A stretch of 58,684 nt of DNA, filler included, from Sphacelaria rigidula (Eukaryota): NCBI GenBank assembly GCA_964200075.2. It is 3 parts of 3 records of this genome, joined end to end, with 100 filler letters (N's around TTAATTAATTAA, not from the genome) between each part and the next. Parts side by side here need not be neighbours in the genome. Positions count along the whole stretch, not along the records: positions 39,194 to 58,684 come from CAXNAA020000657.1; 2 more parts are not named here. The stretch is one strand, 5' to 3'. Both the position numbers and the translations under genes were made by a program. Below are positions 346 through 57,000 of this stretch, in pieces; positions within the stretch are counted from its first letter, which is position 1, and each line of letters opens with the position of its first letter. The notes beneath the pieces are model-generated. The model worked only from the letters and a program-made list of their open reading frames with translations, was not told the DNA's origin and searched no databases.

Positions 346-573
346 CCGACCAGCAGCAGCGGGAAGCAGCATGGTCGGCAGCTGCCGCTGCTGCAGGATC
401 TCCACGACGTCGTCGATTCGGGGCCGACCCCGTGGATCAACTGTAGTGCAGCGATCGATGATCTCTTGCATGTTGCACACGTCCTCCACATTACCCAGCA
501 AAAGCCGAGTGACAGCGCCGTCCGACATCACTGCTCCGAGTGATTTGCGTGGGGGACTCTGTCGCGTCATGAC
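346..573 (-). CDS. Kinase gene exon 5 (subdomains X-XI)
   Basis: tacag|VMTRQSP...[23 protein letters not shown]...AAGR|gtgagg. It may instead run to the stop at 289. Confidence 0.8.
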
Positions 574-3500
574 CTGTACACGATGTGCACAGTTTGCCAA
601 CGTGGAAGACACGTCCCGGTGACCGTCGCGGCATATCCTGCGGCTTATCGAGGCAACACTGGTTTCAAGCGAGGAGTGCTAGAGTCCCACGGATCTATTG
701 GGGGCAAGATTACTGTGTCCTCGAAACGATACTCAACGATACCGCAAAGCACGATGGAGTGAGTCCAGAAAAGGGTGTACCTAGGTGGTCCGTAGATACG
801 GCTTTTGCAGAGTGTACAGGCGTTCAAACGAGTCAACCATTGCATCGCGCCGAAGACTATCCGCTTGGACCCGTCTGCATGCCCGCGGCGATATGTATGT
901 ATGAGAATAATGTACATGATCCACCGTCGCAATACCTCAAGGTATCGGATAAGTCGACACAGCTGGATTTCACAAGATCTCTTCCACATCCGCAACATAA
1001 TCGTTCCTTTCTACTCGAGTGGGGAAGCACCGTGTTTGGTTTACCTTTCGGTGATCATCCCTTTGCAATTTTCTGCCAACTTTAAATGCTGTTCGTCACC
1101 ATTCACCCACCTTGTCGCAAGACTCGGCGTGCTTCTACCACCGTGAATGCTGACCGTACGAACTTCAGCTACATGGCGTTACCTGCGCTATGACATGACT
1201 GCGATACCTTACATCTACACAGACTGTACACAGTTTGGCATGGGCGCTACTGTTGTATGTCACAGGGCGCACAGAAAAAAAAGTGGATGTGACACAAGAA
1301 GTATCATCGGGTAGGGCAGTGCTCTGACGTTGCAGTCCAACCCCAGAAAACGTGGAGCGACGTCGGCAGCACCACCACATTCAACGCGGTTGCCATGCGA
1401 AGGGAGAAATTTAAAAAGTTGCGTCGTCAAACAAACGTCCCCTCATGGGCTGCTCACCTCATGCATGACCACTCCATAGCTGAACACATCCGCTTCACGG
1501 CTGCGGCTACCGAAGCTGTACACCTCCGGTGCCATCCACTGGTATGAGCCAGCAATCTGTGCAGGGTTGTGTTGAACATACCACAGGTACTACGCGTCAC
1601 GTAGATGGAGGGGAGAGACGGGCTAAGCCAGCATGAGAAAATCCTGTTCGGTATTTTCGAGGCCGATCAACTAGTGTAACGTCGGCAGTTCACCAGATGG
1701 GCCGGTCCCTCTAAGGATTGAGCTCGAGACGGTGGTCCAAAAGTCATGGGAAAGACGTCAAGTATAATAACAATATTTCCAGCAGGAAGAAATAGAAAAA
1801 GGCTATGCCACAGTGCCTTCGGGTTCATTCCGTGCCGGCGACGAGGAAGCAAGCGCCCATGGCCTCCTATGCTGCTGCCGCTTATGTATTTCACTACACG
1901 TTACCATGCGATGGCTCCGCACGACCGCACGATAACCGCACTACGCCATGAGTATGCCCATCACTTGAAAAAACTACTGTTATATGCACATCCACTGATT
2001 ATTGGATCATAACTGGCAGGGATACGTGGGAACGGTGGGCAGCGGTGATTCCCATCAGACGGTCTTATCAAACACTCCGGATATTGCTGTACCATTAAGC
2101 CCTTCGTCCTGCCACTGTGTACTCCCTGGTTTGGCTCTTGTTTGGCACACTAAATGCCAAATTCATGAAGTCAGCTGTGCCCTCCTCCACTACTGTGGAA
2201 ATTCTAAGGTACCAGTAGTACGACACCGCATTACCACTTCGTGCCACAGGGCTGCATCACCCTTTGGTCAGCAGGGTGCGTGATAAAGACACGGTTGAAA
2301 AGACCCTGTATGCCAATTACTCAGCCTACACGAGTATCGGGTGGGCCAACACCCTCCTGAACGATGAACATCTCACGCGTCGCAAACGTGATGCGCGCAA
2401 CTCACCTTCTCGCCCGAAGAACCAGTGGTAGCGGCACGAACAGTGGACGCCACGTCAGCGAGCCCGAAGTCTGACAACTTCGGGTTCCTTTCCTGGTCCA
2501 GTAGAATGTTCGGGCTCTTGATATCCATATGGATGATGCCAAGCGAATGCAAGAACCGCAAGCCCTGTAGTACAAAGAAACAACCATGGGCTTTCTTGCA
2601 CAATTCATGTCGGGACTTCGTAGGTCATCCCCGAGGTTCCTAAGATTTCATCTCTCTGCTGACGCGTAACGTCAGGACTGACAGTTGTAGAAACGACAGC
2701 ACAATAAACGCATGGTGCAATTCTTGCGGATTCCACTCACCCAGCCAAGAAGCAGCATACTACCGTCTTCCGGCCTGGATATCACCAGTACGGCGAACCC
2801 GGATGCACTTGATTCGATTGTCATCGAGGTACCTACATTGGATGGTACAGTGTGAGCAGTATGCCAAGTCGGCGGAGTACGGGAAGAGTCGACGGTCCTA
2901 CGTAATATGCGCTGATCAGCGCGGACAATGGTCACACGGCAGTATAAGCAAGGCCTGCACTACGAGTATTTCTTATACATTTCAAACGCGAGGTTATCAG
3001 ACAAAGGATACGACCCCAACAGCCAAATAGCGCATTACCCTTTCCAACAGCTTTCATATCACTCGTATGATCGTTGCTACGTGAACGCTCAAATACCTTG
3101 ATCCTTGTCTCCCGCACACCCGCGTGTTACTCATACGAAAACCCCCAAATGCCGTACATCAGGCGTAAAACCAAGCATGTTTTCCCCGCTAGCGGAGACG
3201 CCAGGAGAACTCCCTGACCAGCGCGCGTGCGTCGTCGGGGTTGGGGTTATGACCAGGGAGGGATACGTGACACGTGACACAGCGTGACACGTGACGTGAA
3301 CGTGACGTTTTGGGCGTCACGTTTCGTTCACGTTAACTTTTTTCAACGTGATTAACGTCACGTTCACGTCACGCTAAATTTTCAGATGGCACGTTCACGT
3401 AACGTTACATTTTCCGAACGTGACACGCACACGTGTCACATCACGTTAAATTTTACGAACGTGATTCACGTCACGTTCACGTTTACGTGTCACGTATCCC

Positions 3501-4675
3501 TCCCTGGTTGTTTCCATCCAACGCCTTATTGCAGCTCATCATTTTTCTTCGGTACGGCTCTGCGTAAACGATAAACTTCGCAGTGAAATGTTCCACCGAA
3601 TGCACGGTTCTCGCAAGCTCACATTTGCTACTCCCATGAGCATGGTGATATTGTCCCCGAGAGTTAGCTCTATGTCCAAGTTGAGGAGATCCGACAGAGT
3701 GTGGTGCATGCGCTCCATGATGAGGCATACAGGACATGATGCACTGTATGCGAACACTTGAACGATATTGTCGTGGCGCACGGCAAAGTGTAGCTCGGCC
3801 TCCCTCCTGAACACAAGACCGAGAGCAAGCAGATTCACGGAGCGTTACGCGGGGCTCAAACATTTGCGTTTTGAAAGTATTGTCAACACAAAAAATCCAC
3901 GATCAAGTAACAAGAGAGAAACAGAGAAGAGCACTGTCAGCCGTTCGCAAGCCCATTGATGCGACACCTACCGGAAATCCAGCTTTTGTTTGAGTGGAAG
4001 GATGTCGAGTTTAGCCTTCTTGATGGCAACTCTCTTGCCGCAGTATGTGCCCCCGAACACGAAGCCGAACGTACCCTCCGCGAACGGTTCATCGTCCTGC
4101 ACAAGATCACTCTTCGAAACCCTTCCAAACGCCCTGCCTGTCATCCCTGTCGTACTTGTGGTCCACAAGCTGCTATGCCCCAGCTGTCGGTCCAGAGATG
4201 TTTCAATGATCTTCCGAACTTCATCTTCACGACAGGGAACCCGCCCATCTACCGCTAGCGACAATTGGGATATGCCCTCCACTGCTGTATTCACTTGAGC
4301 GCCAACGGAAAAAAGGATCGGCAGACTCAGGTCACTAATGCGGCGCTCCAGCTCTGCCTCTTTCTTCACCAGAGCCTCCGCTAGACGTTTCACATGCGTC
4401 ATGTGTCGGACTTTGTTCCATGCGCCCGACGGTTGTACACATTCGTTTAGAAGTGGGGGCACGGAGTCGAGAAACATCCGAAGCTCGACCAACATTGACT
4501 GGAGTCTCGCGTTATTGTGGAAGTTGTCTGCGGCACTGTTCAGGGTGGCCACGAGGTCCCTTGTACGATGTGTGATGCGCCATGCCTCCTCGGTGCATTC
4601 CGTAGCTAGTTCCGCTGTATCCAAGATGTTTACCGCTATTTTATAGATGAACGTGATGACGCTCGTCACATCCAT
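346..4675 (-). CDS. Spliced gene: MLKL-like N-terminal four-helix-bundle domain + TKL-type protein kinase (non-RD), about 458 aa or more
   Basis: Exons 4675-3972, 3806-3623, 2564-2406, 1556-1458 and 573-346 join in frame with GT-AG sites. Kinase motifs occur in order: [42 protein letters not shown]. The 3' end is uncertain: read-through to the stop at 289, or a further exon at 233-183. Confidence 0.9.
1458..1556 (-). CDS. Kinase gene exon 4 (APE motif, subdomain IX)
   Basis: Not in the ORF track. Manual translation gives cacag|[33 protein letters not shown]|gtgagc. Confidence 0.92.
2406..2564 (-). CDS. Kinase gene exon 3 (catalytic loop [11 protein letters not shown])
   Basis: ctacag|[36 protein letters not shown]...GEK|gtgag. 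Confidence 0.92.
3254..3506. mobile_element. hAT-like MITE in kinase intron 2
   Basis: Perfect TIR CAGGGAGGGATACGTGACACGT at both ends, ACGT-rich interior, degenerate 8-bp flanks GTTATGAC/GTTGTTTC. Confidence 0.75.
3623..3806 (-). CDS. Kinase gene exon 2 (alphaC to subdomain V)
   Basis: ttcag|G AGG GAG encoding [17 protein letters not shown]...GVAN, then donor gtgagc. Confidence 0.9.
3972..4675 (-). CDS. Kinase gene coding exon 1 (helical N-terminal domain, G-loop, VAIK)
   Basis: ATG in caacaccATGG context at 4675, open frame MDVTSVITF...KLDFR, donor CG|gtaggt, phase 2. Confidence 0.88.
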
Positions 4676-6760
4676 GGTGTTGGCTGACCCTGTGTGCATG
4701 AGGGGGGGGTGGGGGGGGGGGGGGCGTACTCATTTGTTGCTTGCCTCGGTCGTGTGACCTTTGACCACGCATTCCTTTCGAGACGGAGCACCATGAGGGC
4801 AGGGGGGCTTCCTGTAAACGATCTCTACCATGAAAAATGCACACCTCGATGTTGCAGCTCGGGATTGGATTCGTGAATCGTGTCCAATAAGTGTGCAGCA
4901 GGCGTCCCACTCCAAGAGGGGCCGTTTCAAGGCGGTTTTCCACTTTTAGGCGATCGAAATCGGCTCGCATTATGCTGTCCACACTGCCTCCAAGGCGGGG
5001 CATCTCAAAATTGCATCGCAAACTCTGAAATTGGAGCATACGCTTAGGTTGTTCCTTCGACAGTTACGGATGGCTGATGCTTTCTCTTCTCGCTGCGAGC
5101 TGCAATAGTAAGAGTACCCTCGCCGGAGTCAGCACGTCTGAGAGATCGGGGGTTGTATGTAGGGGACCACGAGCCTACAATACCGGATACAGACTCCACA
5201 AAAAAGGACCCGTGTTTGAGAAGCGAGTGTTTGTTAACGTGTTCAACTTCGAACTCTCATACGACAACAGCCGTCAGCTATCCGCACATGACATGTTCCT
5301 CACCTCACAGCGCAAAAGCAAAACGACGAGAGATCATCGATGGAAGCACACTGCTGAGCATTCCTACTGGGGTAAACGCGTGTATATTTCAATCATGCAC
5401 GCAATACACAACAACAGGACGTTTTGCTGCTATAGTGGACACAAGAGCTCATGCGCACATAATGGAATTGCACAACAAGAGGGTTCCAAGTGCTTGTAAT
5501 GAATTCATTGCATTTTGTCGCCCCGACGGTCACCAACCACCCACGACTGGTACCAAGGGTTTCGGAACAGGCAATTAACTGGCCTTGTTCTACTGCTGCC
5601 TCGCGTATTGCACGTCACTTTCTGTCTCTACAATGGAACGCACACTCGACGTCGACCCTCACACATGCAAGGAGTGAAACTGCAACGATCAGTCCCAGGT
5701 ACGGCGGTGTTGGTCTGACTTTCAGTGGCGCTCGCGTGTGCATGAGAAGCGCCACGTAGCGATTGGCATAAAGCGTGTTATGGCTGCAAGGGCAGGCAGG
5801 ATCCGCCAGGCTTTTCTGTTGGAGCCACATCTAGTCTGCACGCTTCGCTCTGTACATTTCCGTCCTTGGGCGCATGATATGTTTGTCCCCTACTCCCGCG
5901 TAGGCGTTTCCCCTGTACACTCACATATATGTGCAATTTTTCACTTTCGCGTCACATATTGCGCATGATGCGTGCAGCGAACGACAATCGTGGACGAAGG
6001 CGGTGGGGGATCGAGATCGTCGAATGCACACTGCGACGTATTTGCAACAAGAACAACTCTGCGTCACCAGGGGACACGAGCGTCACACTAGACGGTATCA
6101 TCTCGAGCCGATACCGCCCGCATTACTCTGCCAGCGGCTACTGAAGATTACCTGCTAGCCACGCGATGAGCTAGTCGACTTCGCTACAGTATCCTACCGC
6201 GGTCGATCGCGGCGGCTCATTTCGATGCCAATAATATATTTAATAATTATCAAAAGATATCGGGAAACCGTTTTTGCGCTCATGGATTTCATCGAATCGA
6301 AACAAAAGTGTAAAGCATTTTGCAATATTATAATGCGTGTTGGGACCGCGTGCTCTTTGGACCCCATCGGAATTTGAACACCCCAGGAACGACGTGTTGA
6401 GAGGACCGCACGGACATCATGATCGCAGGGACCTCGCCCCGAGCAAAAGTGGGCCGCGCATTTATTGAGCCGGGGGTGGCACAGGCAGGCGAGGTGACTG
6501 GAGCGACACGACGACGACGCAGTGTGCCTCGAAAGGGAAGAGAGCGAGGATTTCAAAACTATAAAATCCAAGCACCCGTAACTCGCGTGGGAATCACTCT
6601 CGCATGTAGATTATGTTAGGGAAGGGTTGGCAACGGTGTATTATAGGGACATGTCGGCGCCTGCCACATCGTCATGACCGCACTGACGAACCGACGCTTG
6701 GTGTAATGCGTGAGAGGACTGCGTGCTTAGAGGACCGTATCCGATTTTAAACACCCCTAT

Positions 6761-10560: not shown

Positions 10561-13500
10561 GTGTGTACTCATGGTCTACGCAACTACGGTTTGGGCCAAA
10601 ACCTGCTTGCCCCTCGCTGTTTTTTTCTTCTTTTTCTAGTATCGTTCCTACTCCATCGTTCGGAATCTTACGGAACGTTTTCCCTACCGTGCTCAGTAGC
10701 GTTATCCCTTAGAGGGATCTATAACTTGCTCGATTGGCCCTGTCTCCTTTTTCGAAAATTTTGACTACTATACCATGGGTGGGGTCATAATGAGAAGATT
10801 ACTTGCAGGTAATTGTTTCTTTGGAATCGCAGGCGTTACACAAACCCCTCACTTGTCTGCATGCTCGTGGATCGGTATTTCCCAAATTGTAGCGATTACA
10901 GCGCGAGAGGCAATGAAACGCGACTCACCAGCCAGTAGTTTACTATTTCCACAACATATTTTGCGACCTCCGCCCTCTGCCCTCCTCAAAAACATGTGCG
11001 CGATCTGACTCCCGTCCGACGTGTAAAACCCTTCCGCACCCGATGTCGCTGCAGACCCGCGTCCCAAGAAAGTTTTCGAACACTCTTCGCTGCCTCCTCC
11101 GATCCATGAGATTAAACGTGATTGGAGTTGCTTGAAGAGATCCACGAGCACCGCCCTCGTTGTGTAACTGGAAACAAGTACGCCAGGGCCGTGTGGTTCG
11201 GTTAGAGACAATGACAGGTACAAGCGGAGAGATCGAAGCATCGCAAAGGTATACTACATTCGAGCAAAGACGGTCATGTTGGAGCTTTCACTCGAAATGG
11301 AAAATTCGAGTCACAAGAGTCGGACTCCTTGGATCAACAAGTAACGACATGCCTGTGCCCCCCCAAATAAAACGGTCGGCGACACAGCATCGACTGACTG
11401 CCAAGGAGCATACAAAAAAACAAAGGACAAAACAAATGATGAAGACATGAATTCGAGGCGTTCCCGAGCCGAAATTTCACATGTAGCGTTTCACACGACG
11501 CTTCAGGGATTTCCGAGGTAAAAACAACAAAGCACTTCCATGAGGTTACTTTGTGGGCGGAGACTACGTATCCCGCACTCGTCTATCTTGTTTTCATTTC
11601 AGTTGTTGTGTTGTTGTTATACGTACGTCACCAAGACGGCATTTTTCGCAAGGAGAGGTCAGGTCAAACCTAGGCGGTCATGTTGAAGCTTTTATCGCAA
11701 AGAAATATTCAAGTCAAACCAAGCCGATTTCTTGTTCCAACAACGTCGTAAATGATACTGCACCCCCTTCCCCTGCCTCCCCAAATCGGCAAAACGGAGT
11801 CGAGTGCCGAGGAGCACAGAAAATACGAAACGTTTATAAGCACGATGAATAAATAAACTCGAGGCGATGCCGAAACGAGTTTTCACGTACAGCTTCTTGG
11901 ATGACGGTCTAGGGCTTGTCTGGGCAAACCAAAAAGCGACTTGTGCTATTTATTTTTCGGCTGGACAAGGCAAGCGGATCTTAACCGCGGATGGCGCCTT
12001 AAGCGTAGTACAAGCAGAGGGCACGCATAATTGTCAAGTGCTCTGGTAAACTCACGAGTTCAATTCAGCCTTGCCCCTGAAGCATCGAACGCAGAGATGA
12101 TAGCGTTATACACCTTCCAGCCGCTGCCGCCGCTGCCGCCGCCGCCGCCCTCGTTCCCGTGCCCACCTCCTCTACCGCCGCTGCCGCTGCGCCCGCCCCT
12201 GCTCCCGTATCCGTCCCCGCTCCCGTCTCCGCCCAAACCCCCGTCTAGCGGCCGCTCCCGCCGCCGCCGCCCCCCGTTCCTCCCTCCTACCCCCCATACC
12301 CCCACGGTCATGCACTTCTTTGGGTACTCTGGGACGGTTGCACACACGGCGCTTCGCAGGATGGAGTGATGCCTGGTTCAGCACCTTGCATCTTGCGCAT
12401 AACCATGACTCTACGCCATCGCCCCCCCCTCCGCCTCCGTTCCTATCGCGACCGCGCATGCCCCCACCTCCGCCGATGAACCGTCTGATCGACCGCACTC
12501 CCTCCATGCCCCCCCCCCGCGCGAGCCCGATATAAGAAGCGCTATGTCTGGTTTGGTGTTTTGCCCCATCCTACGATGCAGTAGTGCCGCGAGGAGTGCC
12601 CCGAACGATAAGTGTCGGCTCACAACAACCAAATCCAACTGCGACCAATAGGATAGCCTGGAAAAAGACGCAGGCTTGTATTGTACAGAGCGCACTGCCG
12701 GAGGATGAGCGTTATTGCCCCCGCGCTGAGTGTTGGCCGAAAAAAACGGGTCGAAGGCATCCCGTCCAGTTCCTCGGCAATAAGCTCCCCTCCTCCACGA
12801 AGGACGGAGTTTCCGATATCGCTGTCGTTTGCCGCCAGAATGATATGATTTCCCGTCAGTACAGCATGGAATGCACTCAACTACACACCACCGCTGCTAT
12901 CCATGCCCAACCTCTCTCGGGTACCAGCTCGCAATTTTGCTGTGGTGTGATGATGCAGCCTTGACATAGACACTCGAGTCGTGTCGGGCTGTGTCGCTCT
13001 GACCTCGGCGCTACATCGCCCGCATGGCAATTGCAGCAGCAGGAGGTGTGCTGCGCAACTACTACTGCTGTACTGTACTCGAAAGCGTGCACATGTAGGC
13101 AGACTACTGTATCAAGTGAGGTCGTCTCCTCCAAGCTGGTGTACTGCAGCAACTTGGCACGTCCAGGGGCAGCAGGAATGCTGCGCAGTGTCATTGTGTG
13201 TGCGTGTGTGTGTGCTTGAGGGTGCGTGTGTGTCATTGACTGAGCGTGTGTGCGTCGGGTGTATGTGCTCGCTCTTGCTGAAAAGCGGCGCAATTTTCCC
13301 GGGACTGTCACGAACGAGGTGACAGTTGGTGACGAACAGTGGTTGTCGCGAGAGGTGTTGTTCCATACATCAGGCTCATGTGCGAAAAGAGCAATTATGA
13401 TCATCAGCACCTGCACAAACCGTAATTTCCAAGAAATAGCTTCAATACCTACCGAGTGGTGAAGTGACGTCCCCTAGATGTAGACTACAGGTGAATACTT

Positions 13501-13589
13501 CGCTGTCTACTACTCGTAGCCTATTTCATTTTGGTCATGGCAATTCAACCGTAGCATGGGTACAAATGACTTGTTTCGTATTCTACTCC

Positions 13590-13745
13590 AGGTGTGGGCC
13601 GTCTGTCTGACGCCTCATGCGTCGCGAGCATAGCTTCACAGTCTGTAGTGTCGTTGTTGAAGACTAAGCAGAGGCATCAGCAGCATGCAGTAAATTGTGT
13701 TCAGTCGAGAGCGATGACGTACTTATACTGTCTCTTGCGGTCGTA
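13590..13745 (+). repeat. Dispersed repeat (other copies at about 40615-40765 + and 51675-51820 -)
   Basis: Shared core tgtctgacgcctca...agcatagcttc...aagcag...cagcatgcagt...cttatactgtctcttgc. Confidence 0.7.
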
Positions 13746-19502: not shown

Positions 19503-19602
19503 NNNNNNNNNNNNNNNNNNNNNNNNNNNNNNNNNNNNNNNNNNNNTTAATTAATTAANNNNNNNNNNNNNNNNNNNNNNNNNNNNNNNNNNNNNNNNNN
19601 NN
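19503..19602. other. Assembly gap with artificial TTAATTAATTAA linker
   Basis: 44 N + TTAATTAATTAA + 44 N, identical at 39094-39193. Confidence 0.95.
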
Positions 19603-25900: not shown

Positions 25901-28900
25901 CAGAAGACATGTGAGGAACAGTGCCTGAAGACCCTCACCGTTAGCCCGCAGAAAAAATATATCCACGAATGTCCTCTCACCAAAGAATGAACGCGGTGGC
26001 TCATGAAAGGGCAGTGATGACGTCGATACCTCCACATGCATGGAGGAGGAAATTCCCACACGTGTCCGTCGAGGAAATCACGTTTTTCACAAAACCTCTC
26101 ATCATATTGTCGTGCATGTGTTTCGTCGCTGTTTGTAGCCGGCGCGTTCGGCTTGGGCACGATGGTCATCAAGGGACGGCAAGCGGGCCTCGAGTTTTTC
26201 GCTGGCTACATCGTGGAGCAATCGCTTTCGGTGGACAACCTTTTCATCTTCATCATGCTCTTTGACTACTTCAAAGTTCCCGCGGAATTCCAGGTACTGG
26301 AGGCGTCTCTGTTCTATGTTTTGGGCAGCTGTGGAGTATCTGAACAATCGTAGGTTTTCGGTGATGGTGATGTTGACGATGAGGAATGTAAATCAAACAT
26401 TTTCGTCGGTTGCAGGCCAAACGTAATGAAGATCTAGGGAGAGACAGAAGTGACACGCAATTTTCCACGCGTAGGACAGCTCATGAGCTAGCTCATCTGC
26501 GGGCGGTAGCCCACTTGTAGTCAAACTTGTACATGGGAGCTACGTCCGATAGCTCAACACAAGGCAAACGGGCGCTGATGAGAGCTCATGCATCTCTCAT
26601 AGCTCATCCAGGGCAAACATGTGTAGCTCATGTAGCTCTCACAGCTCACCCAGGGAAAACATATGCGGATGAGCTACGCTCGATAGCTCACCCAAGGCAA
26701 ATATGTGTAGCTCACGCAGCTCTTGTAGCTTACCCGGGGAAAACATGAGCGAATGAGCTACGCCCGGTAGCTCACCCCAGGGACACATGGTTGTGGCTCA
26801 TTCACGTCATATGCCTAGCTCGCCGCTGGCCAACCCCGTGTCGCTTATGATGCAACATTCTTGTTCGAACGGATGGTGCTACATATCATTAGGTTGTGAT
26901 GCTTCACCACACTCTTCGCGATAGGAAGAAAACGAAGCCAACACATCCTCGCCCGCTTGGTCGGATGGTTGAAAAAAATATTAGTATTCAGTGTCTACAG
27001 TAATCGACCGATTCATTTCTTTTGATCGGTTGGCCGCGAGGGTACGAGTCCATCTGGTTATGCATACGTTTTTCAAGTGAAATTGGGGCCGATTCAACAG
27101 ATGACCTATGCCCGCTGTCAAGGGATTAGCCCTTTGACCGCGAGGGTAGGCGATCTGATGAATCAGCATAATTCACTTGATTTTTACGGTGTGAATGATG
27201 CCGATTCAGAGACCTACCCTCGCGGTCGAAGGGATAGGCAATTGTAGCTCTCATAGCTTTCATAGCTCATCCAGGGCAAACATGTGTAGCTCATGCATCT
27301 CTTATAGCTCGTCCAGGGCAAATATGCGTAGCTCATGCATCTCTTATAGCTCGTCGAGAGCAAACATGTGTAGCTCATGCAGCTCTCATAGCTCACCCAG
27401 GGCGAATATGAGCTGATGAGCTACGGGTTGGTAGCTCGCCTATCGCAAACGTGCGTAGCTCATGTAGCTCTCATAGCTTACTAGGGAGCTACGCTCAAAA
27501 AGAGCTAGCTCGAGCTATAGCGAGCTAATCTGTGCGACATGTGCAATTTTCTGATTGACCAGAAGTTAACTCATGAAACGTGATTGGCTAAAGTTGCTTG
27601 GTCGAAGGTTGGCCTCAACCGTGAGCGCTTGTGGCAGAGGGCTTTTACACGTGAATGGCGTCACTCCCATCGTCTTCAATTTCGTGATCCAAGACGGCAT
27701 AATCACTCGATCCGTGAGTCTCGTACGTCGCGAGGTGACACCGCTTGTCTGGTCGGCAGTCTGCTGCTTGTTTGACGCTCTTGTGTGTGACAAGCAGCCC
27801 ACTGCTGGCCACGCAAAAGGTGCAACGGCATCGCGTCTTGTGCAAAAGGGGTAGGAAGACCACCTGTCCCTGACACGGGGCCAACTACCCCGCCACTTGA
27901 CAAGTTTCGCAGATCGATTATCGTATCGCCTTGGTCATAAAGTTGGAGACGGTGGACAGGAAGTACAAACGCGGCTCTGTGCTGAGAGACGCGAGCTTCG
28001 GGCTCACGTCTGGTTTTTAATACTTCAAACAGGCGTTCTTCGCCCCGTTTCATGCCAAAAAAGGAGATCGTGTAAGTTCCCGTTGCCAAAATGACAGTAT
28101 TGTACATCAACAAACCGCCGCGACGCCTCCTCATCTCCGAGAGATGAACCGGGGATATATAAAAAGAGACATGCTATTTTCTCCCGACCCAAGTTGAGCT
28201 CTGTGTTTAACGCGTGTTCGGCTTTTTTTCTTGCGTTTTGTGCGCGGATGGTTCCTGCGTATATAAATTTTTGCATATTCCGCCCCACCATCTCACGAAA
28301 GACATGTGCGATGATATGCAAACATGAAGAGGTGAAGAAATATTCCCCTCTGGAGTCGACGAAAATGTTGTTGTCCTCACATGAAAAGCCGTTCCCGTAT
28401 CTGCGCAGTACTTGCTTCCGTACTGGGCATCTAGTGCAGACGCCTTCCGTGATCACAAGGCTAATTACCGAAAGAAAATAAATTAAAATAGAAAATGACC
28501 CAAAAAATCAACGCAGACACGATGAAATGAAAGTAAGTGATGATAGCCCCATATGATCGGTGCCGCAAGGGACCATTTGGATTAATGATAGAACCCAACG
28601 CTCCCAATTGACACGTAAAGCGAAGCAGAAATAGAACCAGCATCAAGAACCAAGGATGGCTAACCATAGCAGTAGAAACCGCATAATTCTATCCTTGTAC
28701 CTTTACCAGGCCGGGATGTATTCCCCGGCGGGGTTACGCCGGTTATGCCCGCTCCCCATCCATATCTACACATGCGTGGGGGGTCTACAGCAACCAAGGC
28801 GCACATGTCATTGAATAGGTGATGAAGATGCCGTTTTTCGTTCAACATGATGTTTCATTTTTTTTTTCTTGTATTTTTGCCGGGTATAAATTACGTGGTG

Positions 28901-32825: not shown

Positions 32826-35800
32826 GGAAGCCCGCCCCCCCCGGGGCAGGATTCTTTCGGGTCGGAAGTATTATCCGGGATGGGGGGGCTAATCGCCGAA
32901 ACCCTCCCCCTAGGGAGTAAGCGCCACTCCCTGGTGAATAGTTCTCTGGCTCTAACAAGTCATCACTCGGTGTGTGTACACAATCTCAGCTACGGTAGAG
33001 CTTCACGGTCACAACAGCATAGAAGCCCGAAATCACATCGTGCTTGGAGAAAGGGAACATGCTTTTATGGGCACTGGGCGGATGTCTTACAAAAAGTCTT
33101 GTGTGTGGTTTTGTAACTGTGTGATCGTGTGTGTTGTTCCGTGTCGTGCTCCTCCTCCGGTCTCTTGTGGTCTCACCCCCGTGATGTAAATGTTTTGCAA
33201 AGCTGGCTGTTTGTACTAGGTTTTGGTTGTCGTTGTAAGCGCACGTGCAGTCATACCGTGTGGAAGAAAATGCAAAAGCGGTGATGAATGCGCATCCCAG
33301 TGGCGAGGAACGATATATACCGGTAAAATATAATAACAGCACGGTAGCCAAGGAAATATTTGGGGAACAAGAAAGAGTTGGACCGTATTTTACGGTTGGT
33401 GTTTCGTATTGTTGGGTTGGCGCATTTTCCACCCTTGGGACATCTATCACGGTCTTTGGACCCCAAGTAGGGAATACCGCCGTCACACATGTTGGACTCC
33501 TTGCATCACAACACCGAGAGGAGTCTACAGAAAATACCTGTAGGCACCGTTTTTTTTCGTCCAGCTGTATTTTCATTTACCGGCCATTCGATGTCTGATG
33601 ACGATATTCCCCATTCGTAGTTGAAAAGCCGTGTCGAACGACGGGAAGAGGAAAATGCATCCTCCCCAAAAAAACAACCGTAAGAAACGATCTTGAAGCT
33701 GCAATAACTCCCCCGAAACAAAGACACAAAACGTCTTTTTTGATGGGAAATCAAACGCCACACTGGTGCAACTTTCGCTAGGAAACTAAATAGCGATATT
33801 CATTCTGAACGCAGGTTGATCCACTGTATGCTCAATCTAAACCTCCCCACCCCCCAGATCCATCACGAAAAGCTCACTCGTTACATACGTCCACATACCA
33901 CTTGTCGCATATATTATCGGAGCCAGTCGCCCCGGTGGCTCGGGTGGTGAACTCGAAACCTTCTGATGGTTGGGTCGTGGGTTCAATTCTCGGAGCGATC
34001 TGGGTTTTTTTCTCACACCATGCCCATCAGTTGAGAGCGACAATCTCGTGGGTACATTAAAGTCAACTCAACGATCGACAAGGGAAAGGGATTACCGAAC
34101 CCCTCTCGCGATAAAAAAAAGGCAAGTACCGCAAAAGGACGGGTGGGTAACAAATGAAAAAAAAAGTTCCTGGGTTGACTTTCCTCCTGTGACCGCGGCT
34201 GGTGCGCCCACATGTACGGAAAGGTGTAGACCGGCGTCCAGAATAGATAGGACAACACACACACACACACACACACACACATTGTCGGCATCGCTGTGCG
34301 ATTGCGCAGCCCTGTGTCGACCCTCCAACACGCGTGTTTTTATGTATTTTCACTGCAGTGCGATGTTCGAGTCGTATTTCGTACCCATCGGGGACCAATG
34401 GGTGCTCTTCTTTTCATGAATTGATCTGACCAGGATATGCAAGCCCGTAATGATACCGAGGCTGAGCGTTTCATTTCCCATGGCCCCATCCCTCGTCTCT
34501 TCGTTTCACTTTAGGTTGATGGAGCCAAGAAAGCCACGCCTCTACTGCTGTGCCTGATCTGCATTGAGCTGACGGACTTTGTGTTCGCCGTGGATTCGAT
34601 CCCCGCGGTTCTGGGCGTCTCCCAAGACACGTTCATAGTCTACGCTTCTAATGTACGTGCTGCGTTCCGAAGCTCTTCAACGGTAGAGACAAACACTGTA
34701 AGGTTGTGCACTGGTCGAGCTACTTGGTGAACACATGGTGCTGCTGTGCTTGTCGCCATGTGCTTTTTTTTATTCATTTCATGTTGCTTCATTTCCGTCA
34801 CGTTTTTCGTACAGTCAGTCTCGTTTGACCTCTTGAAGGCTTGAATTTTCCTACAGGTGACTTGCAGTTCATGGTTCACATTACACGGAATTTCACCCTC
34901 AACCCTTCACAGCCACCGGGGGTCATTCGGGTCTCCTGATCGTTTTCGATTAAAATCGGTGCCGGACAGGACAGATCACGTACTTATTCTGGCGTTCAAA
35001 GGATTGGCCTTGATTTTTGACCCATGTGTTGACTGGACTCGACTGCATAGACACATTTTTCTTTTTTTTGGACGCATTTTGCTGAAATGAGACATACGAG
35101 TTCCGTACCTCCCTCTGGCTTTATTCAGGTGTTCGCCATCTGCGCTATGCGAAGCATCTATACCCTTGTCAGCCACGCCATATCAGACTTGCCCTATCTC
35201 AAGCCGGCGGTGGCGCTGGTTCTCGGGTTTGTGGGCATCAAGATGTTTGCGGAGTTCTTCCACTATAAAATTGGCATCGGGGCTTCCCTGGGAGTGGTGA
35301 GAGAGCATGCTGCATGCGGTTCAGGGGATCTTTTCGTGCAAGGAAACGTTGAACGTTCGGATATTGTACGTCGAAAAAAAATGTTTTTATTTCGCGTAGC
35401 GGTTTTGATTACTTCGCTTGATTCCTTTTGTTGGTGCCGTTGTTGTCGTCTGAACCAGTCGAGTTCTCCTCATCTTTGGTCCCCAAATCCGTGTTCAAAA
35501 ATACGTAAATTTATTGTAGACTACCATATTCGGACCTTTACAAGGCTCACAGTCCCGAGGAAAGGGGGTTGAAATTGTACAGAGAAGAGAAGTAAAAAAC
35601 GAGTGGACGAGCTCGGAGAAAAATTGTAGTCTTCCGAGCTACACAAACAACCCCATAAACATATTATATGTTCATGACTGACCAGGTATCAGGAATCTTG
35701 ACGGCGGGCGCTGTTGCCAGCATTATCTCCAACAAAAAACGCGATGCGGCTGAAGCGGCGGCGGCCATGAAAGGCGACAGCGGACTGACCTTCAAGCTCC

Positions 35801-39093: not shown

Positions 39094-39193
39094 NNNNNNN
39101 NNNNNNNNNNNNNNNNNNNNNNNNNNNNNNNNNNNNNTTAATTAATTAANNNNNNNNNNNNNNNNNNNNNNNNNNNNNNNNNNNNNNNNNNNN
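39094..39193. other. Assembly gap with artificial TTAATTAATTAA linker
   Basis: N-run with central linker, as at 19503-19602. Confidence 0.95.
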
Positions 39194-49148: not shown

Positions 49149-49302
49149 GTATCTGAGAGAAACTTCATACTGTTGCGTCGGCGACGGCCGCCTTCAGCGA
49201 ACCGATCCAATGCGGCGGCAGACGCCAACGATCTTCGAAACGCTGCGTCATTCAGCAGTCTGCTGAGATAAACCATCACCACAGCACAGCATCACCACAG
49301 TA

Positions 49303-50260
49303 CAGTGGTCAGTTGGATCAAATGGGTGCTCCACGATAAAGCTGCAGACACACACAACGGGAGTAAGGGTTAGTCCGACGCCTGGGCTTGTTTCGCCAGT
49401 CGTGCCCATGCGAGGCGCTTCATCTAGTCTGAACCAGTTATCACGCCTTGTATGGCCATCCCGCCGTGGCTGTGTTGAGAACCGGTTTCGCGGTGGAGCT
49501 GTTGAACAATCATACTAGTGCAACGCGCTTAAAAATTTCGAGCCGCCTCTTTTTAATTTCAAAGCCGCGGCAGCTCTATGTCGAATATCCCTTCTGACGA
49601 TCCTAAACGGGTGCTGACAAAGCGACGAAAAGCGCTGGCACCGTCACCCTGAGATGCGATTTGAGAGAACTGTGGGGGTATTTGGTGAACATCGCTTGGA
49701 ATGGAATATGTAGAACAGTATCCAGGAGTATATCGTAAGTACATGTTCCCTTGTTCAAAACCGAAATTCCCTTGCTCGAACACTTTACACATGTTCAACA
49801 ATGAACGACTGCTTTCCAAGAAAACAACTCGTTATTTCCAGACTTCCCTAGGGGTTCAATTCTAACGTTGAGGTTGTCTCAAATCCCATCTCAGGATGAC
49901 GGTGCCAGCACTTTTCGTCGCTTTGTCAGCACCCGTTTAGGACCATCAGAAGGGATATTCGACATAGAGCTGCCGCGGCTTTTAATTTGAAAAGAAGAAG
50001 CTCGAAATGTTTAAGCGCGTTGCACTACAAAAGTAGTATTGTTCAACAGCTCTACCGCGAAACCGGTTCTCAACACAGCCACGGCGGAGGTGGCCATACA
50101 AGGCGTGATAGCTGGTTCAGACTAGATTATTCAGACTAGATTAAGCGCCTCGCATGGGCACGACTGGCGAAACAAGCCCAGGCGTCGGACTAACCCTTAC
50201 CCCCGTTGTGTGTGTCTGCAGCTTTATCGTGGAGCACCCATTTGATCCAACTGACCACTG
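49303..50260. mobile_element. Tc1/mariner-type non-autonomous element with about 370-bp TIRs
   Basis: TA|CAGTGGTCAGTTGGATCAAATGG...CCATTTGATCCAACTGACCACTG|TA, arms about 49303-49670 and 49873-50260. Confidence 0.9.
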
Positions 50261-50330
50261 TAGTCTAGTTGGTTGTCTCTTCAACCGTCCCAAAAGTTAG
50301 TCGCTGGTTCGATTCCCGTCGGAAGCACTT
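50261..50330 (+). mobile_element. tRNA-like (Pol III) SINE head
   Basis: A box TAGTCTAGTTGG and B box GGTTCGATTCC. Confidence 0.55.
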
Positions 50331-50484: not shown

Positions 50485-51183
50485 CTACGTCGCCTTGCTG
50501 ATGATCGACTCCTTGACCACCAGCCCAATCCCATGTTGATCAGCCCGTCCCTTGCCTCCCTTTGCCCCGCAGCAAAAGACGCGGTATCCCGCCGCACAAA
50601 ATTCGGATCGACCTGGTGTCCTCGTTTCCTGTAGCCCGATGACGTCACATCTGACTAAGCCTGACATTTTCGCAGGACCACCTCAACATGGCCAGCTCCG
50701 TTCTTTCCCGTGAGGGACAGTGTACTGTACTGACCTTATAGGTAGCCACTTTGAGCTCCCCACTACTTGTTCTAGCCTTAGCCTTCTCTATACCCACACG
50801 TATTTCTCTTTTTTCTGCTCTCCTTTCTGCTCTCCTTTCTGCTCTCCTTTCTGCTCTCCTTTCTCGCCTGTTGGGCCTTTACATTTTACGTGCGAGCTGT
50901 TGTTTCAGTTCCAATTTTTCTTCGCCACGATTATCACTGTACTTGCCTTGCTGGTTGGTCTCGCGGAAAGAGTGCAGCCTTCCCATCCCGAGTCGGTCGC
51001 TCTCTCCAGTCCGCCGAATCTGATATACTTACTCACACGTGCCTCACCTCCATCAACGTGCTTTCCGTGACAGTGTCTCAATGCCGGGTAAAACGCTACA
51101 GCTGCGGGATTCAGTTTGGTTCCCATTCTAGGGTAGAACTCCGGAGTTGAAGGGTTGAGCCTGGACGTTGGCACCGTCGACAT
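50485..51183 (-). pseudogene. 5' part of a LINE ORF: N-terminal region with tandem PAM2-like motifs + APE endonuclease fragment
   Basis: ELKVATYKV, CDVIGLQETR and HGIGLVVKES are APE motifs. Upstream lie (RRAE)n from a 12-bp tandem at 50812-50864 and SRLNPSTPEFYP / TKLNPAAVAFYP. Frameshifted. Confidence 0.8.
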
Positions 51184-52448
51184 GACCCACTACCTAGACT
51201 GTATGTTGCGTTGCCACTGACACGGCACGCAGAGAAGCCAGTAGGTCAACTCACGCTCCCTTACTTACTGGTTGTGTTGTAGACGGGGTTAGCCTACACT
51301 GACACAACAAACCCCAAGTCTGAGAACTTTTCTGAATCAATATTCCTCTGATAGTAATGGGCCTCAACCTGTGAATCAACCATATCTTGTTCAAGACTGT
51401 CAATTGCAAATAATCAGTAGTCCATAATGAGTTTAAAGAGGCTGAAGCCTCAGACATCGACCCCCGCAGGTGGACTGAGTTAGACCACGCCACATTTGAG
51501 GTCCACAACATCTCTTTCCTCGCTGCAAAAAACGCCTTTTTATCAGCATGTGGACATTTGGCATCCATGTGCTTCATAGAAAGTAGTCCCGGAAAACCAC
51601 TGAACAGTTTCGACCCTGCAGTCAATTGCGTGCAGAGTCTGTATGTATTTGTGCTATGTTTCTTTGCTGGATACACCGGCAAGAGACAGTATAAGTGCGC
51701 CATCTCTCTCCACTGAGCACAATTCACTGCATGCTGCTGATGCCCCTGCTTATTCGACAACACTACAGACAGTGCGAAGCTATGCTGGCAACACGTGAGG
51801 CGTCAGACAGGCGGCACAGACCTCGAGCAGAGTAACAGAGTATACAATAAGTAGTTCGTATTCATGTAATACATGGTTGAACTACCATGACCAAAATGAA
51901 ATATTGCAGAAAACAGCGGAGAAATCGACCTGTAGTCGACCTGTAGGGGAACTACGCGCTCATTTTGACTACCGTGATCGGTCACAATGGTCATTCCGCA
52001 CCTCTCGGGCCCCATTCTCAGCTTATCATCTTTCGCGGGAAACTTCCACAGACGCGTGGTTGACTTGGTGAGCTCTTCGGCTGTTCTGCGGACAGATACC
52101 CCGTCCATCAAAAACGACCCCTCCGGCCACTGGAAACCCCCGAGTGCCTCCGGACTGCCAGCCTGTAAAACTGTTCCGAGGTGACGCTTGCTGTCTAAGG
52201 CTTAGCCCTTTTGGAATCGTTGATAGAAATTTGACTATTGAACATTGACGTCTTTTTGGGCAAGAAATGGTTGATTTTCGACAGCGTTTGAGCGAACGAT
52301 TCGCCCAAAGCGTGTTTTTCAGATCCGTGCGAATGGAACGTGAAAGAAAAGAAGGTTCGCTTTCTTACGGTTATGACGAATTGTTCGACCCGTCAGTGTT
52401 TTCCAACCCTGGCCAGAGTACATGGCAGGTCTCCATGAAGCAATCTTC

Positions 52449-54073
52449 CACAGCCTGGACAATACAATATGTAATATATATTGCCCGGTCAATATACCGA
52501 CGCGTCGGGTGGTCAATATATATTGGGCGAACAATATGATGGCACGAGAGAGGGTCAATATATATTATGCCATCAATATGGCAAGGCTCACGACATGCAA
52601 TATATATCGAGCGAACAATATGACACGCACCGCCTCGATATATACTGGCCGAGTAATATGTTGGAGCGAGAAGGCACTGATATACATTTTTCGAGTAATA
52701 TACTAGCTGCTACACGAGGTCAGTATATATTGATGATTCAATATACTCAAAACCCGAAGCGCCAATATATATTGCCGCCCCAGTACGTCGTGCATCAATG
52801 CATCCATTATTATATATTGGGCGGACAATACACAAGAGACCTGACGGTCCCAATGCATGAGGGTATAGCAATATATTATGATTTTCCACATGTAGGTTGT
52901 AAACTGTATTGGAATTAGTATGGTGGGCAGTCCTATGTTCGCGGGCGCCATTCAAAGATGTATCACCACATGCCGAAAACACCCAATATATTCCTCCGCA
53001 AGTGTGTTCAATATAAATTGGCTGCACAATATCTATGCGATGAGCGTGCGCAATATATATTGGAAACATAACACTTTTGCATGGTTTGCCTTCAATACAT
53101 ATTATGGTAACAATATGCGTAGCATTGCTTCGACTCAAAATATTTTGACACTTCAATACATACACGGCCAGCATGCACAATATATATTGACTGTTTCATT
53201 CCCGGAGCATATGCATGCCCAATATATTGTAATACCTCACTTCATGATCACGACACAAGCAATATATATATATATATATGTTTTCTTTAATGTCTCCGAG
53301 GACATCTCAACACAATACGTATTGAAAGGACAATATTTGCGCTGGCTCTAATACAAACTATTGGTATCATATTGGAACATATTGTATTGTTCAGGGTATA
53401 AGCAACACAGCCCCGGTGACCAACCACAGGGGTACCAAAAGGCGCATATCGATCCGCGTTTTCTGTCATCGTGATGTTTAGCCAAGATTTTTTCATTACA
53501 TGCTGGGAAGGGGATGAGCGGCCCCGCACCGGTGGCAAGATGGGTATCAGGAGGCATGTACACCGGGTCGCCTCTTCTGTCACCATATTCTCTGACCAGT
53601 ATATATGTGTGTGTGTGTCAAACGCATTCGATATCTCTCCGTAGTAATGCACGCGAACTTCTGCGGCTCCCTTTGAAGATTTTCCAAATCTGCGCGGGCT
53701 CCGGCATCCATCGCGTCTCTGGATCTCTCTTGAACCGTACACCATACTTATAATATCCAATATATATTGACCGGCCAATACACTGTGACCCACGTAGGCC
53801 CGATATATATTGACCAGTCAATATGTTCTCACCAATGCGACCCTAATATATTGTGGTAGTGCAATATGCTGTCGCCCACGCTTCCCCAATATATATACTG
53901 ATGGGACAATATGTGTTCAACCCCATAGTACCAACATATATTGGGCGAGCAATATGTATGCGGTCCCACGACATCAATATATATCGGGCGCGCAATACGT
54001 GTGCAGTCCAAGGGTACCAATATATATTACGCCGGCAATATATCGCAAAACATATTGGTGTGTCCAGGGTGTG
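52449..54073. mobile_element. Non-autonomous CAC...GTG DNA transposon filled with a 42-43-bp repeat-spacer array
   Basis: TIR CACAGCCTGGACA / CACACCCTGGACA, exact 8-bp TSD CAATCTTC, about 23 units of CAATATATATTG-N6-CAATAT-N18/19. Confidence 0.88.
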
Positions 54074-57000
54074 CAATCTTCACGCCCCTCCCCTTGCAGC
54101 TGATGCTTTGTGCCGCATCATAACAAGGCTGCGCCTAAGTTGCAAGGACAAAGACGACGCCGACGGCACATTCACCTCAGTTATGCCCCCGTCTACTGTC
54201 TGTATTCGGAGGCACTCATCGTCAGACCCTGTGGGGATGTGTCCACCCACTCCTCTGTACTGCGTGTGATCATTATGCTATTTTCGGCTTCTTCCAAGTG
54301 AAAGCTCACGTCATGCACGCTACTGTTATGGGCGCGCCTGACCTCCCAAAATGGGCAAAAAGAGTGTCACCGACCAAAATTACGGAACGACACGAACAGA
54401 CCGACTTTTGGAGCTTATCTAGGCTCGTCGAGTAAAACATGCCCAACGTCATCGGAAGAGAACGACATGGATCCAGAATTCATGTAGAGAACCCTACCGT
54501 TACTTCCGTTGTTGTTCCTCATATATTGCATGCCACTGCGTAGGTTTTCGTCCGCGCTTGCGATACGCTGGAATGCCAGGAGGCTAGTTGGGTTGACCCA
54601 ACCCAACGCACACCGAGAACCCTCGGGCAAGGGCGGTACATACATTCTCTGAACAAAGTAAGGCCTTGGTAGACCCCAAATCGGCGCCACAGGCGCAGAT
54701 TTCAACGAAAACACGTTTTGCTCACACGAGGAGCCCACGGGACTGTCAGTGCGACTTCAATTCCGACTCTCGTTGTACACACACTCAAATCAAGTAATAT
54801 CAACCACGAACATTTGTAGCCCAACACCTGGAACGGGAACTCTGAACCATTTATTTTTGCAAAATCATATGCTCAATAGGCGACAAAACCATATGTACCG
54901 ATGAACTTCGACAAGGACGGCCCTTGCACAGACGAGTGGAGTACAGTCGCCGGGTGTGTCATGTAGGCTGCGCGGATATTGGTCGACTTCCTCGTCATGT
55001 TTTGAGGAGTTTGATTTATCGGATCCCATCGTTCTACAATTTTAGCGGATGAATGGCTCGTCTTGTGCAAGTGTATTTGTTGTTCCGTGGGTACGCTTTT
55101 ATTTCATGCATATGTATGATTTTCATCGGACTCCTAGGGTATCGTGTTCCAAGAGGGAATGAAAACAAACCGCCGGCCGTCATCCACCACTGCCGATACA
55201 ACGGACGCGTGTCTTAGGACGGGTTGGTGTACTGAAAGACATGAATGGGGCTTCGGTGCCATGTGGATTCAGCGAAATTGGGCCGACGACTTTATGCTGT
55301 CTTTTGTGTCGTCTTGACGCAGTATAGTTGACCATTCGGGAGGGTAGCTTGGTCCATCTTGATTTTATTTTGAACATCGATATCCGGATCTTTTCATGGG
55401 AGCTGTGCTCCTAGCATGCTCCTAGCGTGCCCACAACGCGTTTTTGTCTGTCTATAACGGCTGTTGGAGTGTGTTGCCATTGCAGATACTGCTCTCTCTT
55501 CTTGAACGCCTGCTTGCTCTGTGGCTTTCTTTTCTCCTTCAGTTCAGAGTTTGTCCATACTTGCCGCCAGGTGAGAGTAGATACAAAGCTAGGCTATCGA
55601 TGGTGGCGTGGTGATGGCACCGGGTGCAGGAGAACGAGCGCTACTCTTGCCACTATCACAAGCGATGCACAGATGGGGGTAATTATCCGCAGACATGGAA
55701 GCCTCCAGGGGTTGGGTCAAAGGTTCAAATTCTACACCTCTCGAAGATTCCACACATGCGATGTGTATCGACCATCTGCAGTATCAAGACTCATTCATGG
55801 GTGTAATCTATTCTGAGGCCCTTGGACAGGGGTGACGTTTCCGCATGTCGTGAAAACCGGCGAGGGTTTGAGGTTGTTGGTTTGTGCCCGTAGCCCAAAT
55901 GGTTGCCCCAATTACTCATCGTCAAGGCCATCGATTGGGATGCGATTTTTTGCATCATCTGCGCCAAGACGGCAGCTAAAAACTCGGTGATCGAAGTTTT
56001 TTTTATCTCATCGGGATTTGAGTTTTGTAACAAATTAAGTGGAAAAAACATGTTTTCTTTTGCGATTTTCTCGATCACCATAATTCATTTGGTTCCACAA
56101 TCTTCCCAGATTGTAGCTTGGACAAATACACGCCGGTGAGTAGCCTAGGTACGCCGTAGTTCGTAGCCCGGGACAATGAAAATGGAAAATCGTCAAGTAG
56201 AAACCCCACTCATACCACAAGTACTTTGGAGGATTTTACGGCGTGCATAATCAGGGGATGAACGAGATCTCCGGTCTGTTCGTGCTTTTGGTCGGTGCTA
56301 CTTTTTTGGCTCATTTTGGGCGGTCAGGCGCGCCCATAACTGTACTCTATCGCGCGCGTTTGTACGACACCATACTGTGGTTTGATCATTCCACAACTGC
56401 GACGCGGATGCCATGTACCCTGCCGCTATACACACCCCTGTTGCACCGTAGGCGGGAGTCGTCAATTTGGCGGATCCGGTCCAGGCTGTCATTTTGTAGG
56501 CTTCGATCTTACGGCAGATCTCATCCTGCGCTTTGTGCTGTACGTTTGCACAACGCCACCTCCGTCCTGCGGGTTGATCATGCTGAACGTTACACAGCCG
56601 TACTTTGTGCTGCGTGAAGTTCATGACTCCTGCTGGCGCTATCGCGTTCGGACAGTCTGTCCTCGTGGGCGGCGTAGGAATTTGATGCAGTGATACTACA
56701 CACGTGCTGTCTTCTCGCATGGGAGATCGTAACATCGCCATTCAGTTATTATGGACAGCAGTGAAGTAATGTTCACTTAGTTTAGTTGTAGTTTGGTTAG
56801 GCTGGTTGCGGTAGGCTGTCCCGGTCGGTTGTCGACCGTTCGTTAGTATGTCGCCTGTCTCGACGCTTGCAATCACGTCCGCCTCGTGCCTCCTACATAA
56901 TCCTGAATGCCTCGCAGCGTTTTCTCTTTCCGCGGCTACTACTTTATTTACGTTTGGTAGGCGAGTGGGAGGGGGCGGTGTGCGCCGGGGGGCAATGGGC

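Follow-up and report, generated by a model that had tools for sequence, protein, structure and literature searches.

The element occupies positions 52449-54073 of the analyzed DNA from Sphacelaria rigidula, a 58.7-kb stretch of joined records (hereafter the window), and its 1625 bases account for 2.8% of this window within the part derived from CAXNAA020000657.1. Directly outside both termini the same 8-mer, CAATCTTC, was found (52441-52448 on the left and 54074-54081 on the right, identical in 8/8 positions), being the target site duplication (TSD) of one insertion. The ends form a terminal inverted repeat (TIR) of 23 nt, the left one (52449-52471, plus strand) matching the reverse complement of the right one (54051-54073, minus strand) in 19 of 23 positions. 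At fixed positions, chance accounts for the TIR match with a probability of ~1e-8 and for the 8-bp TSD with one of ~1.5e-5. A G precedes both copies of CAATCTTC, so that a TSD of 9 bp is a possible reading, but the TIR then becomes less symmetric. Both ends show the tip CACAG, and both TIRs carry the hexamer CAATAT at positions 17-22, counted inward from either tip and in mirrored orientation. As this hexamer is the half-site of the array enclosed by the ends, the array half-site belongs to both TIRs. Inverted similarity within the element is limited to 23-27 nt. The packaging of the array inside a TIR transposon, which an earlier note on this DNA had claimed, is borne out by the matching termini (19/23) and the perfect TSD (8/8).

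Most of the element is built from one repeated unit, which consists of the 12-nt AT-only palindrome CAATATATATTG, 6 variable nt, a CAATAT half-site and ~18 variable GC-rich nt. There are 23 such units of ~42-43 bp in three blocks, covering 966 of the 1625 bases (59%). Block 1 (52472-52850, plus strand) hosts nine units with steps of 42, 42, 42, 38, 42, 43, 42, and 45 bp and is followed by a segment (52851-53008) containing stray motif copies only (52869 and 52984). Block 2 (53009-53355, plus strand) comprises seven more decayed units, among which an (AT)9 microsatellite (53262-53279) has grown from a palindrome unit and breaks the array. A second microsatellite of the element is a short GT run at ~53603-53618. 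The non-array internal segment (53401-53757) is non-coding and high-copy in the family, the ORFs across it being without a Pfam match. Block 3 (53758-54050, plus strand) contains seven units with steps of 43, 43, 43, 45, 43, and 43 bp and shares the polarity of blocks 1 and 2. Considering all 19 within-block steps, 42 bp occurred nine times, 43 bp seven times, 45 bp twice, and 38 bp once. The order of the half-sites is identical in all three blocks, i.e., forward, reverse at +6, and forward at +18, with the next unit at +42. Much of what the earlier note had said about the array could be reproduced: each of the 23 unit starts that it listed carries the motif, the claimed common direction of all units, including those at the right end, is seen as a single polarity in the half-site map of the three blocks, and the units indeed fill most of the element, namely 59% of its bases (966/1625). 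A derivation of block 3 from block 1 by direct duplication was considered and dropped, as the blast matches between blocks (60-76%) are driven by the motif lattice and lack a one-to-one correspondence of units.

The motif itself has been retained to varying degrees. The 12-mer CAATATATATTG is exact in five of the 23 units and has at most two mismatches in 20, while the units at 52678, 53220, and 53844 represent more degenerate or 2-nt-deleted variants of the palindrome. The downstream half-site is an exact CAATAT in 13/23 units (for the one at 53887 if its register is shifted by 2 nt), CAATAC in four, TAATAT in two, and degenerate in the remaining four. Within the window, 29 of 48 CAATAT copies, all five exact copies of CAATATATATTG, and 23 of the 24 palindrome matches with up to two mismatches lie inside the element, an enrichment far beyond chance. 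Pairwise identity between units amounts to 0.788 in the 18 motif columns vs 0.286 in the 24 other columns, and the GC content is 0.20 in the motif vs 0.57 elsewhere in the units. Within-unit shuffling of the non-motif columns yielded an identity of 0.255 (sd 0.005), and none of 1000 shuffles reached 0.286. Between adjacent units, the non-motif identity is 0.344, which suggests that a faint trace of common descent of the units is left in the spacers. The claim of unique spacers was nearly right: their near-random identity (0.286 vs 0.255 after shuffling) agrees with it, whereas the slight excess, reaching 0.344 in adjacent units, does not. Tandem Repeats Finder reported one short 43-bp array only (53928-54028, 2.3 copies, 74% matches). 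Judged by these sequence features, the structure looks like an old tandem array that has kept only its motif and its unit length, and not like an ordinary decaying tandem repeat.

The description given in the earlier note did not include a degenerate right-type terminus inside the element (53378-53400, minus strand). This terminus agrees with the left TIR in 19/23 positions overall and shows one mismatch to its inner 18 nt, a match expected 0.04 times by chance. Its tip is TATA instead of CACA, and the next 8 nt, AGCAACAC, have no matching duplication. A separate 952-bp element at 52449-53400 was rejected for this reason, since the 8 nt past the internal terminus do not repeat the left flank. 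Given this extra terminus, the copy at 52449-54073 is rearranged or composite. An array of the same polarity precedes either right-type end; thus, the transposon family as a whole seems to have this asymmetric array layout.

With regard to coding capacity, none of the six ORFs overlapping the element gave a Pfam match better than E 0.1. In the whole window, 106 stop-to-stop ORFs of at least 110 aa contained no transposase domain, two TerC pieces being the only Pfam matches. These ORFs (26021-26350 and 35051-35569, plus strand, E 3.3e-4 and 4.4e-7), ~9 kb apart, correspond to the beginning and the end, respectively, of the profile of the TerC membrane protein and look like one eukaryotic TerC gene with long introns. 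The two TerC pieces, the N gaps, and the shortness of the ORFs give the window a eukaryotic look. A further 112 ORFs of 55-109 aa, located between 44 kb and the window end, yielded four weak Pfam matches (DUF3330, DUF4210, Exo_endo_phos, and PAM2) and neither a transposase nor an RNA-guided nuclease. The statement that no cas-like or transposase gene is visible nearby thus stands for all 218 window ORFs scanned as well as for the six overlapping the element. Searches outside the window gave a similar picture. In viral contigs, the unit pattern was encountered at 36 loci, always as a single match in DNA of 18-46% GC and never as an array. The 18-nt terminus was found at 18 loci in metagenome contigs, where blast similarity to the element extends over no more than 26 nt and does so in two loci only, at four loci in viral contigs and at nine bacterial loci in genome contigs, with no family member among them. 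Each of these outside loci (36, 18, 4, and 9) is a single match due to chance. An autonomous copy was found neither in the window nor in viral, metagenome, or prokaryotic genome contigs, and the window itself yielded no second copy of the element.

Portions of the stretch are present in five public sequencing runs (shares of 0.13-0.28), some of them labelled as algae metagenome. Contigs of four public runs (X1, X3, X4, and X9) were aligned at a likeness of at least 80% to the 3.5 kb between 51500 and 55000, resulting in 13411, 14109, 5218, and 815 contig pieces, respectively, most of them 80-95% alike. In X1, 637 pieces fell into the class of at least 99% likeness, 2215 into 95-99%, 5350 into 90-95%, and 5209 below 90%. 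Summed contig depth is not a copy number, the depth of 29 of an exact single-copy X1 contig (record 2) serving as a rough guide; it rises at the left end (52436) from 23776 to 71601 in X1, from 25939 to 73737 in X3, and from 405 to 5399 in X4, and drops at the right end (54074) from 40147 to 5655, from 49251 to 4268, and from 2798 to 207, respectively. A depth step at the predicted ends was hence present in three of the four runs, with X9 showing none. The contig pieces also cover the spacers; one of them (record 25) extends over 52450-52677 and includes five units together with their spacers at 33 differences. Similarity of the motif only would fall far below the 80% threshold, so that the spacers, in the same order, belong to the family. 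Since thousands of contig pieces are 80-99% similar across the element including its spacers, the spacers are fixed components inherited within a high-copy repeat family.

The family data further reveal differences between copies. In the bin 52787-52903, the summed depth in X1 is 6767 vs 32776 and 36272 in the adjoining bins, and the dip recurs in X3 and X4, suggesting that part of the segment 52851-53008 is common to far fewer family copies. A 4-nt deletion at 53419 is carried by about half of the summed family depth (23624/50697 in X1) and probably marks a subfamily. Among the rows listed, beyond which another 739 fall on the aligned 3.5 kb including the flanks, the family majority differs from the element at 19 positions, of which 11 are in spacers, five outside the units, and three in the motif. 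In all three listed motif-column differences, the family majority corresponds to the motif consensus and the element copy deviates from it, which indicates that the family ancestor probably had cleaner motifs and that the copy studied here has decayed since its insertion.

The element is embedded in repeat-rich DNA, as its flanks are repeats themselves: both of them attract thousands of contig pieces from the public runs, the left flank contains at 50000-50263 an 89% inverted copy of 49301-49543 just upstream, and 51680-51950 is a 76% copy of 13470-13738. At ~54597, telomere-like CCCTAA repeats precede many of the contigs matching from there rightwards, which holds for all four runs, and in other copies the repeat family starting there would thus abut interstitial or terminal telomeric repeats. 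In the left flank, a weak Exo_endo_phos match (50488-50682, minus strand, E 4.5e-4, below the Pfam cut-off) may be what remains of the endonuclease of a decayed LINE-like retroelement, and a perfect 12-mer tandem repeat, TTTCTGCTCTCC, is present in 4.4 copies at 50812-50864. The window also contains two identical-looking gap structures, in each of which 12 bases separate two runs of 44 N, at 19503-19602 and 39094-39193, ~19.6 kb apart, which are the coordinates of the filler joins, and 10-N gaps at 15663 and 31494, perhaps scaffold gaps or masked sequence.

TIRs, a flanking TSD of one insertion, a multi-copy state with similarity ending at the termini, and the lack of an internal transposase all characterize the element as a class II TIR cut-and-paste transposon of the non-autonomous type. 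We consider it likely that it is a copy of a high-copy non-autonomous TIR transposon whose arms are predicted to act as multivalent, helically phased transposase-binding lattices. A phased protein-binding lattice within a TIR transposon had been the simplest reading offered in the earlier note, and it is the one we favor on the grounds of the TIR with its 8-bp TSD, the half-site in both TIRs, and the column-specific conservation. The predicted binding site is tripartite, with two inverted CAATAT half-sites fused as CAATATATATTG and a third CAATAT following 6 nt on. Its repetition every 42-43 bp corresponds to four helical turns and would place all sites on the same side of the DNA. We infer that a transposase encoded elsewhere binds CAATAT through a sequence-specific DNA-binding domain, presumably as a dimer on the palindrome with a further protomer on the single CAATAT site. 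CAATAT at the termini, lying 17-22 nt away from either tip, would position the catalytic core for cleavage, and the many subterminal sites would provide the avidity by which a multimeric transposase finds and synapses the ends. The GC-rich spacers would then be filler, of which the length (the phase) matters and the sequence does not. The arrays probably arose from tandem duplication of a 42-bp unit, after which selection on the transposing lineage would have kept the motif columns only. Several findings do not fit this reading easily. All three arrays have one polarity and are not mirrored, so that the two ends are not equivalent; the arrays extend ~400 bp inward, beyond most described subterminal regions; and the missing transposase in the window, the internal terminus at 53378-53400, and the tip CACAG also speak against it.

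Subterminal repeats of transposase-binding sites as such are textbook knowledge. In the consulted parts of the report on Hermes, BED domains of the transposase are described to bind a short motif present in 17 and 14 copies in the two ends, two motif copies forming a quasi-palindrome that is bound cooperatively, with a site layout differing between the ends (PMC10368747). The transposase of Herves binds a repeated subterminal 8-mer in both ends, as stated in the corresponding excerpt (PMC3143072). Short TIRs and an 8-bp TSD are given as hAT characters in the portions of two articles at hand (PMC12730594, PMC10368747), the first of which also assigns a TSD of 8 bp to Zisupton (PMC12730594). The element resembles hAT transposons (Hermes, Herves, Ac/Ds, Tol2, and Tag1) in its short TIRs, its 8-bp TSD, and its short motifs repeated over several hundred bp per end. 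In hAT elements such motifs are bound by the N-terminal transposase domain, and the sites described here are candidates only. The quasi-palindromic motif pair of Hermes with its unequal left and right layouts furthermore has a counterpart in the palindrome and the unequal ends of the element, as far as the consulted part of the Hermes report goes. Described hAT elements, however, show irregularly spaced motifs of 4-8 nt, whereas the tripartite units of the element, 23 in number, are set in a strict lattice of 42-43 bp and cover 59% of its length. The classical hAT tip is CAG(A/G)G-like with the consensus YARNG. With C instead of a purine as its third base, the tip CACAG departs from this consensus. 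The 8-bp TSD agrees with hAT and is not exclusive to it. A hAT transposase, characterized by a BED finger, an RNase-H-like DDE core, and a hAT dimerization domain, was not among the window ORFs.

Other superfamilies were compared in the same way. Galileo carries THAP sites within tandem repeats that belong to its long TIRs, and multiple sites have been proposed to give binding specificity, according to the pertinent passages of one study (PMC3688188). The element is similar to Galileo and further Foldback-like elements (of the P superfamily and others) with respect to tandem units near the ends, which there contain secondary THAP transposase sites, as described in the same passages (PMC3688188). 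The arrays of those elements are situated inside long mirrored inverted repeats, whereas the element has a TIR of 23 nt and arrays of one direction. An assignment as a Foldback-like element was rejected in view of the lack of mirrored long arms, all blocks having one polarity and the inverted similarity being restricted to 23-27 nt. Mutator-like elements have TSDs of 8-9 bp. Together with Zisupton/KDZ they share the TSD range of 8-9 bp with the 8-bp TSD of the element, but neither a MULE nor a KDZ transposase was found among the window ORFs. CACTA/EnSpm and Transib, considered for the tips of the element, which start CAC...GTG, were rejected likewise, there being no 3-bp or 5-bp flank duplication beside a perfect 8-bp one. 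We thus assign the element no further than to the TIR DNA transposons, its 8-bp TSD fitting hAT, but also Zisupton/KDZ and possibly others. The string CAATATATATTG was not found in the literature searched, although Repbase or the supplements of papers on transposable elements, e.g., on Ectocarpus (PMC12477816, consulted in part), may hold a relative. Keyword searches of the literature likewise retrieved no description of such a transposon family. The less usual traits of the element are that its 23 units keep a strict lattice of four turns, that the site is tripartite, that both arms share a single polarity, and that 59% of the length is devoted to the lattice.

These features lead to a variant of the transposase reading which we hold as a tentative and rather doubtful possibility, namely an extreme and hitherto undescribed way of recognizing transposon ends, in which a transposase, possibly a lineage-specific or unclassified one, polymerizes on seven to nine phased tripartite sites per arm and the polarity of the lattice, not the near-identical TIRs, distinguishes left from right. 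In a bolder and much less likely version, the 42-nt lattice (2 x 21) with its TATA-like cores may also give rise to phased small RNAs with a silencing or regulatory effect on the family.

Binding by a host factor is an unlikely explanation of the lattice, which in that case would be a regulatory, insulator-like, nucleosome-excluding, or heterochromatin-nucleating module carried by the element. Such a role would suit TATA-like, AT-only 12-mers (GC 0.20) set into GC-rich DNA (0.57) at a fixed phase of 42-43 bp, and also the single polarity across both arms, which end recognition alone does not require. Both TIRs nevertheless contain the half-site at positions 17-22, in an orientation that is mirrored along with the tips, which ties the motif to end recognition, and with 23 of the 24 near-palindromes of the window the motif is nearly confined to the element. 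Quite improbable, too, is a functionless, decayed internal minisatellite, of which the motif would be the slowest-decaying or latest-homogenized part. The faint excess similarity of the spacers (0.286 vs 0.255, adjacent units 0.344) and the short stretch still detected as a 43-bp tandem repeat are compatible with this explanation, and internal tandem repeats are common in transposons, as the accessible part of one study indicates (PMC3688188). Neutral decay, however, would affect all columns equally, yet 18 of them have kept an identity of 0.79 and 24 are almost random; the AT-only motif contains no CpG that could account for a slower decay; the unit length is 42-43 bp in 16 of 19 steps; and the motif is also present in the TIRs. 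A classification as minisatellite or satellite DNA was rejected, as the units are not alike over their whole length (non-motif identity 0.286; 2.3 copies at 74% in Tandem Repeats Finder).

The headline of the earlier note, a CRISPR-like guide array, did not withstand the comparison of family copies, and it fails the refutation that the note itself had set as regards spacer conservation and targets in the window. According to this idea, transcription of the array and processing of the transcript would yield one small RNA or guide for every unit, or phased siRNAs (42 = 2 x 21), which we regard as very unlikely. The architecture does resemble repeat-spacer arrays, TATA-like motifs could start transcription, contigs of X9 (the RNA nature of which is only guessed) lie on family members at low depth, and the arms, folded as RNA, slightly exceed shuffled sequences in stability (z -2.91, -1.78, and -3.05). 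This stability was not accepted as a sign of an RNA: the helices pair interchangeable palindromes, as expected of any palindrome array, and do not form unit-wise hairpins. Individually acquired guides are contradicted by the spacers, which are fixed in a very-high-copy family; contigs align through them at a likeness of at least 80% and in the same order, and thousands of contig pieces keep them in order at 80-99% likeness. The search for spacer targets with shuffled controls, as suggested in that note, was performed against the rest of the window and gave nothing above the shuffled level, the 23 spacers reaching a mean best match of 13.39/18 vs 13.13-13.48 in five shuffled sets. Rfam returned no family, the sole match being sub-threshold (E 0.65, 14 bits vs a gathering score of 44), and no cas-, TnpB/Fanzor-, or nuclease-like ORF was seen in or near the element. 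The likeness to CRISPR arrays is superficial, consisting of conserved short repeats alternating with dissimilar spacers of fixed length, whereas the element is eukaryotic, lies inside TIR and TSD bounds, and has spacers that were evidently inherited across many family copies. A CRISPR array was also rejected as a class, the conserved part being split into 12 + 6 nt around 6 variable nt at an identity of 0.79 instead of forming near-identical repeats of ~23-55 nt, and none of the 218 ORFs scanned being a cas or other RNA-guided nuclease gene. Short repeats of the same polarity in helical phase, with variable spacers between them, are the classic layout of iterons, and the array resembles it, but that the phased direct repeats serve an origin of replication or a partition site, with the element as what is left of an episome or virus, is highly improbable in view of the TIR, the 8-bp TSD, and the high-copy dispersed state as marks of transposition, the lack of a Rep-like or other ORF match in the element, and the absence of any viral contig with an array (36 viral loci with single matches in AT-rich DNA).

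Read as a non-autonomous transposon with transposase-binding arms, the element is of an ordinary kind with an unusually regular architecture. For annotation it teaches that, where eukaryotic DNA shows a repeat-spacer architecture, TIRs, TSDs, and copy number should be examined first and an analogy to CRISPR drawn only then. With its clear-cut bounds, it exemplifies a high-copy DNA transposon in a eukaryotic genome that is little studied, rich in repeats, and apparently algal. The predicted binding site of its partner transposase is precise, comprising CAATAT half-sites arranged as a palindrome plus one in a 42-bp phase. The regular lattice would therewith be a good natural substrate for learning what part the many weak sites and the helical phase play when multimeric transposases locate the ends of their elements.
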